Shown here: in pieces, positions 4,149 to 8,004 of the stretch
Layout of the letters: every line of letters starts with the position of its first letter
How positions within the stretch are numbered: the first letter of the stretch is position 1
Assembly (NCBI GenBank): GCA_046292465.1
Contig: JBKBRB010000012.1
Location: 7,282 to 71,281 of the forward strand
Source of the DNA: Chloroherpetonaceae bacterium
GTDB taxonomy: Bacteria; Bacteroidota; Chlorobiia; Chlorobiales; Thermochlorobacteraceae
DNA: 64,000 nucleotides
Direction: 5' to 3'
Position numbers and translations under genes: made by a program
Notes under the pieces: model-generated
What the model was told of the DNA's origin: nothing
Database searches by the model: none
What the model saw: the letters and a program-made list of their open reading frames with translations, nothing else

Positions 4149-5443
4149 AAGAAAATCAACTGCACCGATACAAAGAGCGGCAGGAGTATCACGAGCGAAA
4201 ACTTCCCCACATATCCCATAAAACTTGGCATTTCCACACTTTGCTCTTCGGCAATGGCTTTGACCATAAAATTTGGCGCGTTGCCGATGTAAGTCATCGC
4301 TCCAAAAAAGACTGCACCAATGCAAATCGCTTTGAGCGTAACTTCGGGAATACCTGCAATCATCACATTGGCTTGTTGCGCTAAGCCCAACGCCAAAGAG
4401 TAGAAAGTAACGGCAGTCGGCGTGTTATCTAAAACGCCGCTCAAAACACCTGTTGCGTAGAAGAATTGCACAGGGCTTGTTACGCCCAGCGTGGGCGCGT
4501 TGGCTTCCAAGAAGAGCAAGCAAGGAATCATCGTAATGAAAATGCCCAAGAAGAGGTAAGCGACTTCTTCAATCGGATGCCATGAGAATTTATTTGCCTC
4601 GCGCACTTCTTTTTTCGTTAGCCAAAGCGACAATCCGAGCAAAATCAAAATCACAAGTTCGCGCAAAAACTTCGCATATTCATTTTGCTTAAAGAGCGAG
4701 ATGTATTGCTCATTGAGAAACGCGACCGACAACACCACCCCCAAAAGCAACACGAAGTTGATGCTACCTGTAATTTTTATGGGTCGAATTTCTTCAATAT
4801 CGCGCTTCAACGCGGCGAGGCTTTCTTTTTGATAGTAGTAATAAGAATCCACGCCGAAGTAGGTTGCAAGCAGAATAATGTTCGCAAAGAGCCACACGGG
4901 CAAAAGGTTCAAAAACCATTCAAACGGCACGCCGCGCAAATAGAGCACAAAGAGCGGCGGGTCTCCGAGCGGCGTTACCAATCCGCCACAATTAGCCACC
5001 ACGGCGATAAAAAAGAGCACCGTGTGGACTTTGAACTGTCGCTCAGCGTTGGTTTCCAAGAGCGGACGAATAAGGAGCATTGCCGCGCCTGTCGTGCCCA
5101 TTAGCGAAGCGAGCACCGCGCCGATTGCCATAAATGTTGTGTTAATAATCGGCTTTGCTTCAATATCGCCTGTGATGTTGATTCCGCCCGTAATGACAAA
5201 GAGCGCGCCGAGCAAAATCAGAAACGGCACATAGTCGAAGAGAAGCGCGTGTTTGAGTTCGCCCCACATGGCGTTGTAAATTAAAAATCCTAACACAGGC
5301 AGACTACACACCAATGCCACAATGAGTTTATTGCGGTTGCTTTCCCAAAAGTGTGCGAACGTCAGCGGCATTACAGCGATTGCCGCTAAAAGCAGTGCAA
5401 ACGGTATGAGAAGGACAAGAGGAATCTCGTGCTGGTCGTGCAT
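4145..5443 (-). CDS. ArsB/NhaD-superfamily permease (putative Na+/H+ antiporter, CitMHS-like)
   Basis: 432-aa polytopic membrane protein. The GGLVTPLGDPPLFVLYLRG segment is typical of NhaD-like sodium:proton antiporters. Confidence 0.6.
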   Translation of the reverse strand: MHDQHEIPLVLLIPFALLLAAIAVMPLTFAHFWESNRNKLIVALVCSLPVLGFLIYNAMWGELKHALLFDYVPFLILLGALFVITGGINITGDIEAKPIINTTFMAIGAVLASLMGTTGAAMLLIRPLLETNAERQFKVHTVLFFIAVVANCGGLVTPLGDPPLFVLYLRGVPFEWFLNLLPVWLFANIILLATYFGVDSYYYYQKESLAALKRDIEEIRPIKITGSINFVLLLGVVLSVAFLNEQYISLFKQNEYAKFLRELVILILLGLSLWLTKKEVREANKFSWHPIEEVAYLFLGIFITMIPCLLFLEANAPTLGVTSPVQFFYATGVLSGVLDNTPTAVTFYSLALGLAQQANVMIAGIPEVTLKAICIGAVFFGAMTYIGNAPNFMVKAIAEEQSVEMPSFMGYVGKFSLVILLPLFVSVQLIFF

Positions 5444-5482
5444 AGTTGGATTTGATTTCAGAGATGCTGTTGAAAAACGCTG

Positions 5483-5864
5483 TTGATGGCGGTAAAAATA
5501 CGGTATGTTCGTGCTTTCGGAAATCCGTTAGAGAAAAATGGGAATATCGAGCAACTCTGGCTCGCGTTCTTTTTGTCGGCTTGGGCGCGATTGGCATTAT
5601 GTCTTATTCCTGAATCGCTCAAACCTGAATTGCTCAAAGAAACGCCGTCGAGACAAGCACACATACCTACGCTAACGGAGCGCGAAAAAGAAATTCTTCA
5701 TTCATTATGTTGCCGAAGGATTGTCGACGGAACAAATTGCTAGCAAACTTTTCATCAGTCCTCGCACGGTCGAAGTGCATCGAAGCAACATGATTAAAAA
5801 ATTAGGTGCACAAAACGCCGCTGAACTTATCGAACTCGCCATTCAGCATGGTCTACTTGCGTAA
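5483..5864 (+). pseudogene. Frameshifted remnant of a LuxR/NarL-type HTH regulator
   Basis: Frame 1 reads ...PTLTEREKEILHSL, then runs off into nonsense. After a +1 shift at ~5708, the sequence from 5709 reads VAEGLSTEQIASKLFISPRTVEVHRSNMIKKLGAQNAAELIELAIQHGLLA* (stop 5862-5864). The second frame has a stop at 5673-5675 and no ATG/GTG/TTG before 5709. There is no room upstream for a receiver domain. Confidence 0.55.
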
Positions 5865-5913
5865 AATTGCATGTGGTTTAATAGGACATGAAAAAAATTT
5901 TTTCGAAATGCTC

Positions 5914-5943
5914 TTGACAAACTTTCAAAAATTTGTATTTTTG
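5914..5943 (+). promoter_or_regulatory. Promoter of the sRNA gene (-35 TTGACA, 16-nt spacer, -10 TATTTT; also fits the Bacteroidetes-type TAnnTTTG)
   Basis: TTGACA at 5914-5919 and TATTTTTG at 5936-5943. It lies just upstream of a structured, terminator-ended non-coding segment. Confidence 0.6.
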
Positions 5944-5947
5944 CAGT

Positions 5948-6131
5948 GGCAACAAAGCAATGGACGCCCTGTTCATTGTGGTAGGTGATGTGGGGGACAC
6001 CTACTAGTTGCATAGCGGACGCGAGTCCGCTATCTATTTGGGTAGCAGTAAAGTAGTAGGCACCCTGTCTACTATGGCAAGTGATGTGGGGGACACTTGT
6101 CAACTGCGGGGCGACTTCGGTCGCCCTTTTT
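5948..6131 (+). ncRNA. ~185-nt small RNA with two repeated hairpin + G-rich-box modules, a central GNRA hairpin and an intrinsic terminator (possibly Chlorobi-1-like)
   Basis: Promoter at 5914-5943. Module 1 spans 5957-6000 and module 2 spans 6053-6096. Each is a hairpin with a ..CCCTGT loop followed by TGG(T/C)A(G/A)GTGATGTGGGGGACAC. A 9-bp hairpin ATAGCGGAC-GCGA-GTCCGCTAT sits at 6012-6033, and a terminator at 6109-6131. The overlapping 60-86 aa track ORFs have no recognisable protein features. Confidence 0.7.
6109..6131 (+). terminator. Rho-independent terminator of the sRNA
   Basis: GGGCGAC-TTCG-GTCGCCC followed by TTTTT. Confidence 0.85.
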
Positions 6132-6260
6132 ATTTCGACTCGATTTAATTTCAGATTGATTTAATCTCGGCCCGACTTACTCGGGGGCGCGCTCACTCGA
6201 GCATGCCGCAAGCCATGTCGACAAGCCATGTCCACACGCGCGTAACATCAAAAACAAGTC

Positions 6261-6980
6261 ATGCTTGAACTGCTCTTGCTCTTCGCTCTCAGCTATCTTG
6301 CCGCAACGCTTTCAGGCGCGGCAGGATTTGGCGGCGCGCTTGTCTTGCTCCCTGCTCTGACCAACCTTGTGGGAATCAGTGCCGCCGTTCCAATTCTGAC
6401 CATCGGACAGATTTTTGGAAATGCGTCAAGAGTGTGGTTCGGCAGAGATGATTTACAGTGGAAGCCCATCCTCTTCTTTCTACTGACGGCTGTTCCTTTA
6501 ACGATTCTTGGCAGTTACCTCTTTGGCGAGATTGAACGCGACAAGGTCAAAATTGGCATTGGTATCTTTCTCATCCTTTTAGTCCTCTATCGCAGAACAA
6601 ACATCAAAAAAGTTGCGCTTGGCGAAAAAGGGCTCTTGCTTGGCGGCGGACTAACAGGGTTTATCTCGGGCATTGCAGGCAGTGCAGGACCGCTTAGCGC
6701 GGCTTTCTTTCTCGGACTCGACCTCACCGCAAAAGCCTACATCGCCAGCGAAGCCTTCACGGCTTTGGTCATTCATCTCACCAAAACCATCATCTACAAC
6801 GCCTTTGCTCTTATCAACTGGACTGAACTTTACTACGGACTCTTCATTGGCGGAGCAATGATTTTGGGAAGTTGGACGGGCAGGAAAATCATTGAAAAAT
6901 TGAGCAGAGAAAAATTCATTCTGCTTGTTGAAGTGTTGCTCATCATCTCAGGACTGCAGTTGATATGGACTGCTCTGTGA
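6261..6980 (+). CDS. TauE/SafE family sulfite/anion exporter (DUF81)
   Basis: 239-aa multi-TM protein with glycine-rich repeats (GAAGFGGALVLLP, GIAGSAGPL) typical of TauE/SafE. Confidence 0.75.
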   Translation: MLELLLLFALSYLAATLSGAAGFGGALVLLPALTNLVGISAAVPILTIGQIFGNASRVWFGRDDLQWKPILFFLLTAVPLTILGSYLFGEIERDKVKIGIGIFLILLVLYRRTNIKKVALGEKGLLLGGGLTGFISGIAGSAGPLSAAFFLGLDLTAKAYIASEAFTALVIHLTKTIIYNAFALINWTELYYGLFIGGAMILGSWTGRKIIEKLSREKFILLVEVLLIISGLQLIWTAL

Positions 6981-7020
6981 AAGCGAGAACAGATTGGACG
7001 GATTAAAGAGATGATTCGCA

Positions 7021-8004
7021 TCACTCGATGGGCGGGCGCACCAAATTTCCAGCCGTGTCGATATATCCGATAGCCCCTTCATTCAGCACTTGTGCTAATC
7101 CATCAACGAACTTTCCGACATAGTCATATTTCGGCTCAACAATCCACTTGCCGTTTGTATCAATCACGCCGACTTTGCCATTTTGCCTAACCGACGCATA
7201 GCCGCGATTGAACGACTCAACCACACTTTCAAATTGCGGCGCAATCACCATTGTGCCCTGCTTATTGATGAATCCCCAACGATGCGAAGCCGTGTCTTGC
7301 ACGGCGGTGAGCCCTTCGCTAAACGAGAGCGCGTTTTCAAATTTCAACTCGATAACAGGCTTTGCGCCGAAATTCACATAGCCCCACAAGTTTCCGATGC
7401 GAACGGCACAAAGGCTATCCGAGAAATCGCGTGCATCGTCGAATTGCGGCTTAATGACGAGCGTTCCTTGTTTATCAATGAATCCGCACTTGCCGTTTAT
7501 CATCACCATTGCGCGCCCTTGCGAAAAGCGGGAGGCTAAGTCATACTGCGGCAAAATCACCTTGCGTCCTTCTTTATTGATGAACCCCCACTTGGCGGAA
7601 TCCATGGTTTCAACAGCGGCGAGTCCTTCGCTAAATCGCATCGCATTTCGGTAGTCAGGCTTAATGGCGAGCGAACCTTCAGCATCGAAGTAGCCAAATG
7701 TTTTGCCGATACGCACTACTGCAAAGCCTTCGGAGTAAGAGCGAATATCGCTGTATTGAATTTGCGTGAGAAGCGAGCCTTTTTCGTTCATCACGCCGAA
7801 GTTGCCTTTCTGCCCCACAATCGCCAGACCTTCGGAGAACGGCATAGCGGCATCGTATTGTGGCACAATGATGACCTTGCCCGTTCTATCCATGTAGCCA
7901 TATTGACGGTTTTCAGAAATCACATACAAGCCGCCTTCACGGCGCGAACAAGATGAAAGAAGCAACACTAACGCGCAAGCCAGCAATCTAATTTTCAACG
8001 GCAT
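7021..8004 (-). CDS. WG/KWG-repeat lipoprotein
   Basis: Lipoprotein signal LLLSSCS, then about 9 repeats of the ..GKxGxIDxxGxxVIxPxYDxAxxFSEGLAxV type (WG-containing repeat). Confidence 0.75.
   Translation of the reverse strand: MPLKIRLLACALVLLLSSCSRREGGLYVISENRQYGYMDRTGKVIIVPQYDAAMPFSEGLAIVGQKGNFGVMNEKGSLLTQIQYSDIRSYSEGFAVVRIGKTFGYFDAEGSLAIKPDYRNAMRFSEGLAAVETMDSAKWGFINKEGRKVILPQYDLASRFSQGRAMVMINGKCGFIDKQGTLVIKPQFDDARDFSDSLCAVRIGNLWGYVNFGAKPVIELKFENALSFSEGLTAVQDTASHRWGFINKQGTMVIAPQFESVVESFNRGYASVRQNGKVGVIDTNGKWIVEPKYDYVGKFVDGLAQVLNEGAIGYIDTAGNLVRPPIE

Follow-up and report, generated by a model that had tools for sequence, protein, structure and literature searches.

The stretch of DNA analysed here (the window, 64 kb in length) carries, between positions 5914 and 6135 of its plus strand, a predicted promoter, two copies of a structured module and two hairpins of the terminator type, one behind each module. 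Direct reading of the window recovered every sequence feature that an earlier note had listed for this segment, each at the coordinates assigned to it. Upstream on the same strand lies what is left of a NarL-type response regulator, namely a deletion junction (5609-5629) and a frameshifted GerE/LuxR C-terminal remnant (5609-5864 altogether, with a Pfam GerE match on 5721-5864), which forms the context of the RNA and is not part of it. Downstream, a TauE-family gene (6261-6980) is encoded, also on the plus strand.

The promoter consists of the −35/−33 box TTGACA (5914-5919) and, after 16 nt, the −10/−7 box TATTTT(TG) (5936-5943), both identified by a promoter scan in which TTGACA-16 nt-TATTTT attained 10 of 12 consensus matches. 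As had been pointed out before, TATTTTTG (5936-5943) also agrees with TAnnTTTG, the Bacteroidetes motif. Together with the distal terminator, T2, this promoter is the top-ranking site of its kind within 5000-7200. The boxes agree, furthermore, with the RpoD motif of Chlorobaculum tepidum, TTG-N17-23-TA[ATC][ATC][AT]T, which is located about 4 bp before +1 (dRNA-seq preprint, bioRxiv 10.1101/172254). Applying this spacing, with approximately 4 nt between the −7 box and +1, places the predicted transcription start within 5945-5948 on the plus strand, at approximately 5946, 3 nt ahead of the closing stem of the first module.

Each of the two modules is 63 nt long and comprises a closing stem, the hairpin P1 with a C-rich loop and the hairpin P2 with a G-rich loop, all on the plus strand. 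Module 1 (5949-6011), which is identified by the minimum free energy (MFE) and centroid fold, the Rfam match and pair counts and scores 89 bits with the covariance model R1, contains a 5-bp closing stem GCAAC/GUUGC (5949-5953/6007-6011), a 9-bp P1 (5957-5965/5971-5979) with the loop GCCCU (5966-5970), and an 8-bp P2 (5980-5987/5998-6005) with the loop AUGUGGGGGA (5988-5997). Module 2 (6045-6107), identified by the fold and pair counts and scoring 91 bits with R1, repeats this layout with the 5-bp closing stem GCAGU/ACUGC (6045-6049/6103-6107), a 9-bp P1 (6053-6061/6067-6075) with the loop ACCCU (6062-6066), in which A6062 and U6066 may form an extra pair, and an 8-bp P2 (6076-6083/6094-6101) with, again, the loop AUGUGGGGGA (6084-6093). 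The P2 strands are GGUAGGUG/CACCUACU at 5980-6005 and GGCAAGUG/CACUUGUC at 6076-6101. The plus strand from 5945 to 6131 (187 nt) folds with −80.3 kcal/mol (z = −4.7), and its centroid and MFE structures are the same. The earlier note had delimited two 44-nt modules (5957-6000 and 6053-6096), and these repeats are indeed present, but the fold and the Rfam alignment show that the true unit is 63 nt long and includes two hairpins. Likewise, the 22-nt G-rich tail reported for each repeat is identical at 20 of 22 positions as described, but it is not single-stranded, being made up of the 5' strand of P2 and the 10-nt apical loop.

The repeat has a period of 96 nt, and the two 96-nt units, each consisting of a module and the terminator-type hairpin behind it, align base for base, which points to tandem duplication of a [module + terminator] unit behind a single promoter. 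The 16-mer GTGATGTGGGGGACAC occurs exactly twice in the 64 kb, at 5985-6000 and 6081-6096, and at least two matches were obtained in only 2 of 100 shuffles. No third module was detected in the 64-kb window, either with the module covariance model or with Rfam.

The first of the two terminator-type hairpins, T1 (6012-6039, plus strand, −15.0 kcal/mol), is the 9-bp GNRA hairpin that had been recognized between the modules; it is confirmed as a GCGA hairpin, AUAGCGGAC-GCGA-GUCCGCUAU (6012-6033), and is followed by the U-rich tail CUAUUU. The copy in the window is one T short of the terminator rule, and the orthologous hairpins in two related loci (L134 and L009) pass it, the tails in passing orthologues being UUAUUU or AUUUUU; the tail is U-rich in all 12 orthologues described below. 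T1 is a terminator-type element and probably leaky, although as a hairpin it is as stable as T2. The stem of T1 includes two compensatory pairs, and its loop is free to vary (GCGA, GCAA, GUAA, ACAA, CAA, CCU, UAU). The second hairpin, T2 (6108-6135, plus strand, −15.5 kcal/mol), was identified by a terminator scan as a strong intrinsic terminator, GGGGCGAC-UUCG-GUCGCCCU followed by UUUUAUUU; at the DNA level, this corresponds to GGGGCGAC-TTCG-GTCGCCCT with a T-run (6108-6131; hairpin 6108-6127, tail UUUUUAUUU), exactly the terminator that had been read from the sequence before. In the orthologues, the T2 stem is conserved and the loop is variable (UUCG, UAU, UUUG), such that the loops of both T1 and T2 vary freely, 1-nt indels included. 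Under the proposed scheme, transcription would start at about 5946 and end in part at the weak T1, yielding an RNA of approximately 92 nt with one module; the remaining transcription would pass T1 and end at T2, yielding an RNA of approximately 186 nt with two modules.

Comparative analysis was based on 12 distinct orthologous sequences from Chlorobiales metagenome-assembled genomes (MAGs) and metagenomes (alignment A4). A strict two-loop pattern scan of one genome per species retrieved four MAG records that contain the two-module locus, two from uncultured Chlorobiales (with identical RNA loci), one from Chloroherpetonaceae and one from Ca. Thermochlorobacteriaceae, along with two chance matches in coding DNA. 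The latter two families belong to Chlorobiota, order Chlorobiales, and the hosts of the orthologues are not Chlorobiaceae. With the response regulator of locus L009 as the anchor, seven more RNA-bearing loci were found, this synteny-based approach being successful in the group with 82-93% identity. A scan of metagenomes for the tandem P2-loop pattern returned mostly satellite and tandem repeats; among the matches listed, 1 of 120 loci was real (L045). In 504 kb of decoy DNA, in which each locus contained the G-rich decamer twice, the module covariance model reached at most 16.9 bits, compared to about 90 bits for the true modules. No RNA was found downstream of a regulator orthologue with 61% identity (L133), upstream of TauE in GBChlB-type genomes (76%-identical TauE), or at the syntenic sites of the more distant relatives examined (L133, L010-L012). 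The element is therefore either confined to a narrow clade or has moved.

All 12 orthologues retain both promoter boxes, the two modules and the terminator, in support of the earlier proposal that this is an independent sRNA gene, about 185 nt long, on the plus strand. All 12 sequences are close (at least 90% identical), so the covariation described here derives from few events. The 53 pairs of the seven helices account for 636 cells in A4, and all 636 are standard pairs. Compensatory changes in both partners were found in four pairs, of which two belong to P2 of module 1 and the other two to T1; many more pairs change via G-U intermediates. In the shuffle control, 0 of 500 replicates reached the observed covariation score or the percentage of paired cells, and 2 of 500 reached the number of compensatory pairs, with the caveat that related sequences without a structure can exceed such controls in some cases; slid controls yielded 23-51% pairing. 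When module 1 was compared with module 2, both partners were found to differ in 9 of the 22 pairs, and pairing was 100%. Two of these pairs belong to the closing stem, which does not vary among the orthologues and is supported by this comparison of paralogous modules alone.

None of the 10 positions of the P1 loops is variable, and the 20 positions of the P2 loops are invariant except for one A-to-G substitution, which is shared by the two modules of a single orthologue (L141). By comparison, 14 of the 68 positions in the P1 and P2 stems are variable, and every change keeps the pairing. Invariant loops on stems that change while preserving pairing represent the pattern expected of an RNA with functional loops. 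As a measure of selection, the RNA in the window is 91-96% identical to that of the relatives, compared to 61-84% at the third codon positions of the neighbouring CitMHS_2 gene. The downstream spacer, compared in four relatives, is unalignable in three of them (L134-L136, about 50% identity) and is 84% identical in the closest one (L009).

The same pattern of substitutions bears on the coding potential of the segment. In 8 of the 12 orthologues, the minus strand contains a frame of 76-91 codons without a stop, and in the window this frame could specify a small protein of 86 codons with the internal repeat VPHITxHxxQG (5843-6103), the RNA structure then being incidental. However, 1-nt indels in the loops break this frame in the other 4 of the 12, and the variable sites are distributed over codon positions 1, 2 and 3 as 8, 12 and 12, without an excess in the third position. 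Moreover, nearly all the substitutions alter the encoded amino acid, and all of them preserve base pairing; the scan of the minus strand found neither a promoter nor a terminator, and the frame begins with TTG and lacks a conserved start. We accordingly consider a minus-strand protein to be hardly credible, in agreement with the earlier statement that the segment contains no credible ORF. Plus-strand ORFs were rejected as well.

TTGACA is invariant in 12 of 12 orthologues, as are the 16-nt spacing and the form TAT(T/C)TT of the second box, and TAnnTTTG is kept in 11 of 12, whereas spacer positions and the three nucleotides that follow the box are variable. The predicted start region (5945-5948) is the only transcribed stretch that varies at every position among the orthologues (three of three leader positions). 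Just 5' of the −35 box, the window contains an A7T6 tract (5891-5903, plus strand) which, according to A4, is a shortened version of the AT-rich palindrome AAAAAAAT(T/C)GTTAACTTTTTTTT present in 10 of the 12 orthologues; this tract may serve as an UP-like element or an operator, or mark the end of the transcript of the upstream gene.

A response-regulator gene encoded on the same strand precedes the element by 60-100 nt in 10 of the 12 loci. Hence the possibility, raised in the earlier note as one that would undermine the sRNA interpretation, that the structured region belongs to, or is processed from, the 3' UTR of this LuxR/NarL-type regulator, the match to a promoter being fortuitous. The invariance of TTGACA-16-TAT(T/C)TT in 12 loci, against a background of variation in the spacer and behind the box, argues against this explanation, and so does the fate of the regulator itself. 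In the relatives L134-L141, the HisKA_3 kinase and the NarL-type response regulator at this position are intact, and in L009 both genes are located directly upstream of the RNA. Compared to L009 by blastn, the window lacks about 2.1 kb, which include the receiver domain of the regulator and the greater part of the kinase, and in L006 and L008, a separate deletion took away a larger part; neither event damaged the promoter or the RNA, which remain intact and subject to the same constraint. Because the RNA survived two independent upstream deletions, it requires neither read-through from that operon nor, apparently, that regulator, and a 3' UTR origin appears very improbable.

Downstream of the RNA, the succession of promoter, fold, terminator, fold and terminator, followed after 130 nt by the plus-strand TauE-family gene, is the arrangement of tandem riboswitches that terminate transcription. 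Under this alternative, the RNA would be a cis-acting leader, with two tandem units of a sensor fold and a terminator attenuating the TauE-family gene. However, a plus-strand TauE gene follows T2 only in the window, L009 and L141; it is absent in five loci (L134, L135, L137, L139 and L140), where the next gene is a convergent WG-repeat gene on the minus strand, 40-60 nt past T2, and in L136 there is yet another gene. The downstream gene thus differs from genome to genome, which excludes a leader function; conversely, the TauE orthologues of GBChlB-type genomes are not preceded by such a leader. Conserved antiterminator pairing was not found either. The only alternative helix, a pairing of 6000-6006 with 6054-6060 that had been proposed as a conformational switch, is complementary in the window but contains a C·A mismatch in 10 of the 12 orthologues. 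The substitutions that break the CCTACTA/TAGTAGG complementarity convert G-U to G-C within P2, and because they improve P2, it is this hairpin and not the switch that is the selected structure; the switch was accordingly rejected. Given also that Weinberg et al. classed the motif to which the modules are related (see below) as not cis-regulatory (PMC2864571), we regard attenuation of TauE as very improbable.

Rfam 15 searched at gathering thresholds produced no match in the whole 64-kb window. Below these thresholds, Chlorobi-1 (RF01696) was the sole match with E ≤ 1 among 4227 families on both strands of the 64 kb, with 5954-6020 aligned to model positions 1-67 (full length) at 26.6 bits and E = 0.0038; the gathering score of this family is 50 bits, so module 1 attains about half of it. 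In a search restricted to 701 nt, the E-value of this match was 4e-5. Module 2 had no Chlorobi-1 match with E ≤ 10, even in a 100-nt search. Thus, the affinity to Chlorobi-1 that had been suspected is singled out by Rfam for module 1, albeit at a score short of the gathering cutoff, and module 2 escapes detection. Other sub-threshold matches (isrB, PhrS, MicX, ncS025 and DUF3800-I), which depend for the most part on the terminator hairpin, were discarded.

Chlorobi-1 RNAs were described as restricted to Chlorobi and as composed of two hairpins whose terminal loops are conserved, with terminators predicted after all of them (Weinberg et al., PMC2864571, supplement). We took the 15 seed sequences from this supplement and aligned 14 published seeds jointly with 11 distinct new modules (alignment A5). 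The two sets are colinear with the exception of a single P1-loop nucleotide, and 94.4% of the cells pair in the Rfam structure, with both partners changing in 17 of the 18 pairs; UGGGGG and a single C of a loop do not vary. The compatibility with the published description, two stem-loops followed by a terminator, which the earlier note had mentioned, extends to colinear alignment with the seed in the published structure. The sole systematic misfit is the apical pair of P2, which is A·A or G·A in the new modules, and as a consequence the P2 loop widens from 8 nt (AAUGGGGG in Chlorobi-1) to 10 nt (AUGUGGGGGA). The regions of the P1 loops read ACGCCC in module 1 and GCACCC in module 2, compared to CGCC(C/A) in Chlorobi-1.

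The similarity to Chlorobi-1 encompasses adjacent hairpins P1 and P2 in the same register, concentration of the conservation in the terminal loops, partial agreement in the nucleotides of these loops (P1 loop (A)CGCCC, P2 loop core UGGGGG(A/C)C), the presence of an intrinsic terminator downstream (here, the strong T2), occurrence in the phylum Chlorobi, and tandem multiplicity. Apart from the size of the P2 loop, there are further differences. The P1 stem CCUCAC/GUGRGG of Chlorobiaceae is not kept in the new modules, and an extra 5-bp closing stem surrounds P1 and P2. The new modules follow one promoter with a period of 96 nt, whereas the Chlorobi-1 seeds are separate genes 226-326 nt apart; an arrangement of single-module genes, each preceded by a separate promoter of the sigma-54 type, is our reading of the published flanks and not a curated criterion of the family. 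Furthermore, the host lineage is outside Chlorobiaceae. A pairing between the 5' strand of P1 and the P2 loop, marked as "unclear" by Weinberg et al., is precluded here by the different sequences of the P1 stems. On the strength of these comparisons, we assign the locus to a known family, Chlorobi-1, of which it is a new, divergent two-module form that falls below the Rfam threshold.

The two branches of the family also differ in their promoters. In 13 of the 15 Chlorobi-1 seeds, TGGCA(C/T)-N5-TTG(C/A) is found 16-26 nt upstream of P1, that is, a sigma-54 promoter of the −24/−12 type (TGGCAC-N5-TTGC); the two seeds without this element are the two divergent ones that lack the CCC loop. In contrast, the promoter at the locus analysed here is of the RpoD type, and the sigma-54 element TGGCA[CT]-N5-TTG[CA] was found in 0 of the 12 orthologues, the window locus included. 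The two branches accordingly appear to use different sigma factors. Chlorobi-1 is also present in multiple copies in Chlorobiaceae. A literature search yielded no mention of the Chlorobi-1 motif beyond the 2010 survey, and no function given for any Chlorobi-1 RNA (PMC2864571).

Taken together, these results indicate that the locus is very probably a real, independent sRNA gene, a divergent double version of Chlorobi-1 in a relative of the green sulfur bacteria. Our preferred reading, to which we assign a probability of roughly 0.7, is that 5946-6131 on the plus strand is an independently transcribed non-coding sRNA gene of a member of Chlorobiales, in the Chloroherpetonaceae/Ca. Thermochlorobacteriaceae lineage, a duplicated homologue of Chlorobi-1 with an RpoD promoter, which acts in trans via its loops. 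Each module would be a short closing stem that bears two hairpins and thereby displays two invariant apical loops, the C-rich pentaloop (G/A-CCCU) and the G-rich decaloop AUGUGGGGGA, and both loops would serve as recognition surfaces through which the RNA acts in trans. The most likely default mechanism is base pairing of the G-rich loops, the C-rich loops or both with complementary stretches of mRNA, in which case the partners would be C-rich (UCCCCCAC-like) or G-rich sites, and the long form would present two identical sets of seeds. In the 64-kb window, sites complementary to the G-rich loop occur at the chance level, in a search that has very little power.

Titration of a protein is the main alternative to base pairing with mRNA. 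In this case, the gene would be the same, but the invariant loops, four per long transcript, would sequester an RNA-binding protein without pairing with any mRNA, as CsrB and RsmZ titrate CsrA and as multi-copy sRNA families titrate RRM-type proteins in Bacteroidota. Such a role is compatible with invariant loops on freely covarying stems that are repeated within one transcript, with the P2 loop ending in GGGGGA and hence containing GGA, with the multiplicity of Chlorobi-1 in Chlorobiaceae and, so far as that low-powered test goes, with the lack of an excess of complementary sites in the window. The identical substitution in both modules of L141 is also what would be expected for one shared partner; it fits, however, a partner of either kind, RNA or protein, and can be explained by gene conversion as well. 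Against titration, there are just two loops of each kind per transcript, compared to the many in known sponges, the P2 loop differs from the CsrA consensus A(N)GGA, and a candidate protein was not identified from the 64-kb window alone; to our knowledge, CsrA has not been described in Chlorobi. On balance, we consider protein titration unlikely and retain mRNA pairing as the preferred mechanism.

Several other known systems share some features with the RNA and differ in others. With CsrB, RsmY and RsmZ, the RNA shares repeated hairpins, variable stems and a short, invariant, purine-rich loop motif with GGA in the loop, but it has two G-rich loops per transcript that are not A(N)GGA, and its C-rich loop is without a counterpart there. 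The Qrr1-5 RNAs of Vibrio resemble the Chlorobi-1 genes of Chlorobiaceae in the presence of several near-identical copies, each with an apparent −24/−12 promoter and its own terminator, but the RNA in the window has no −24/−12 element, and there is no sequence relationship; moreover, Qrr RNAs employ a single-stranded, Hfq-dependent seed rather than apical loops. As in RsaE/RoxS and the UCCC loops of the RNAIII type, a stable hairpin exposes a C-rich apical loop with the potential to pair with mRNAs at G-rich, Shine-Dalgarno-like sites; however, there is no homology in sequence or structure, and here the C-rich loop is joined by a better-conserved G-rich loop.

A more elaborate possibility is that the modules are compact three-way junctions, with the C-rich loop of P1 and the G-rich loop of P2 docking within or between the modules, such that the two-module RNA would be a bivalent decoy for a Chlorobi RNA-binding protein or for the C/U-rich anti-Shine-Dalgarno region of the ribosome, the family having switched from the sigma-54 single-module genes of Chlorobiaceae to a constitutive double-module gene. 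The pseudoknot between CCCU and GGGG suggested in the earlier note is sterically conceivable in a three-way junction, but covariation support for it was not found, and the two published seeds without CCC keep GGGGG, and some of the other seeds have CCA. This scenario is speculative, and we hold it to be decidedly doubtful; if true, it would reveal a new class of regulatory RNA-protein system in Chlorobi. We know of no sRNA mechanism in this phylum.

The preferred reading, a trans-acting sRNA of the Chlorobi-1 family, has several implications. Since 2010, Chlorobi-1 had remained an orphan motif, seen only in Chlorobiaceae, and the locus described here carries the family into deep-branching Chlorobiales, a branch that is partly aerobic and photoheterotrophic; the double-module form is, as far as seen, confined to a narrow clade of this order. 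The Rfam threshold overlooks this branch, and gene callers place spurious ORFs over the RNA. The locus also presents a clear case of the growth of an sRNA, by tandem duplication of a module with its terminator behind one promoter. For the copies in Chlorobiaceae, the sigma-54-type promoters provide a testable handle on the timing of the expression of the family. Over the evolutionary distance between the two branches, the register of the two hairpins was kept together with the UGGGGG and C-rich loops, whereas the sequence of the P1 stem, the class of promoter and the layout with one module per gene were not. The search for the functional surface of Chlorobi-1 is thereby narrowed to the two loops.

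In 13 of the 15 published Chlorobi-1 seeds, a sigma-54-type −24/−12 promoter, TGGCA(C/T)-N5-TTG(C/A), lies 16-26 nt 5' of the P1 hairpin; this observation pertains to the seed loci, with flanks taken from Additional file 4 of Weinberg et al. 2010, and not to the window, and the account of the motif in that paper (PMC2864571) makes no mention of such a promoter. The two seeds that lack it are divergent and likewise lack the CCC loop. In the seed flanks of several Chlorobiaceae genomes, the same convergent gene follows the last Chlorobi-1 copy of the array on its 3' side. The end of this gene, we presume, resembles the malate dehydrogenase C-terminus.

Among the 12 distinct orthologous sRNA loci that we aligned, 10 show an AT-rich palindrome, AAAAAAAT(T/C)GTTAACTTTTTTTT, directly 5' of the −35 box (alignment columns 31-53), which in the window is reduced to A7T6 (5891-5903). 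This palindrome could serve as an UP element or operator, or mark where the transcript of the regulator gene ends.

Upstream of the sRNA gene, a frameshifted GerE/LuxR C-terminal remnant occupies positions 5483-5864, with a junction at about 5609-5629; compared to the orthologous locus L009, approximately 2.1 kb is missing from the window, a stretch that spans a histidine kinase of the HisKA_3 type together with the receiver domain of a regulator of the NarL type, and the same operon has undergone a larger, independent deletion in the related loci L006 and L008. Downstream, the presence of the TauE-family gene (6261-6980), which separates the sRNA from the WG-repeat gene, varies among the genomes of the clade (window compared to L134, L135, L137, L139 and L140), an insertion or deletion polymorphism that directly adjoins the sRNA terminator.

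In five loci of relatives, the public annotation includes hypothetical ORFs, 47-95 aa long, that overlie the sRNA (L134, 4759-5046; L135, 4757-5044; L136, 4761-4904; L137, 2259-2402; L141, 1042-1230). None of these ORFs has a Pfam match, and they are likely to be annotation artefacts. Across the window (1-64000), no Rfam family, tRNA included, reached its gathering score, so that tRNA genes and other annotated RNAs appear to be absent from it.

In L141, an identical A-to-G substitution is found in both P2 loops (GUGUGGGGGA; L141 996-1213). This change is concerted across the two modules, its source being either gene conversion or co-selection with one partner.
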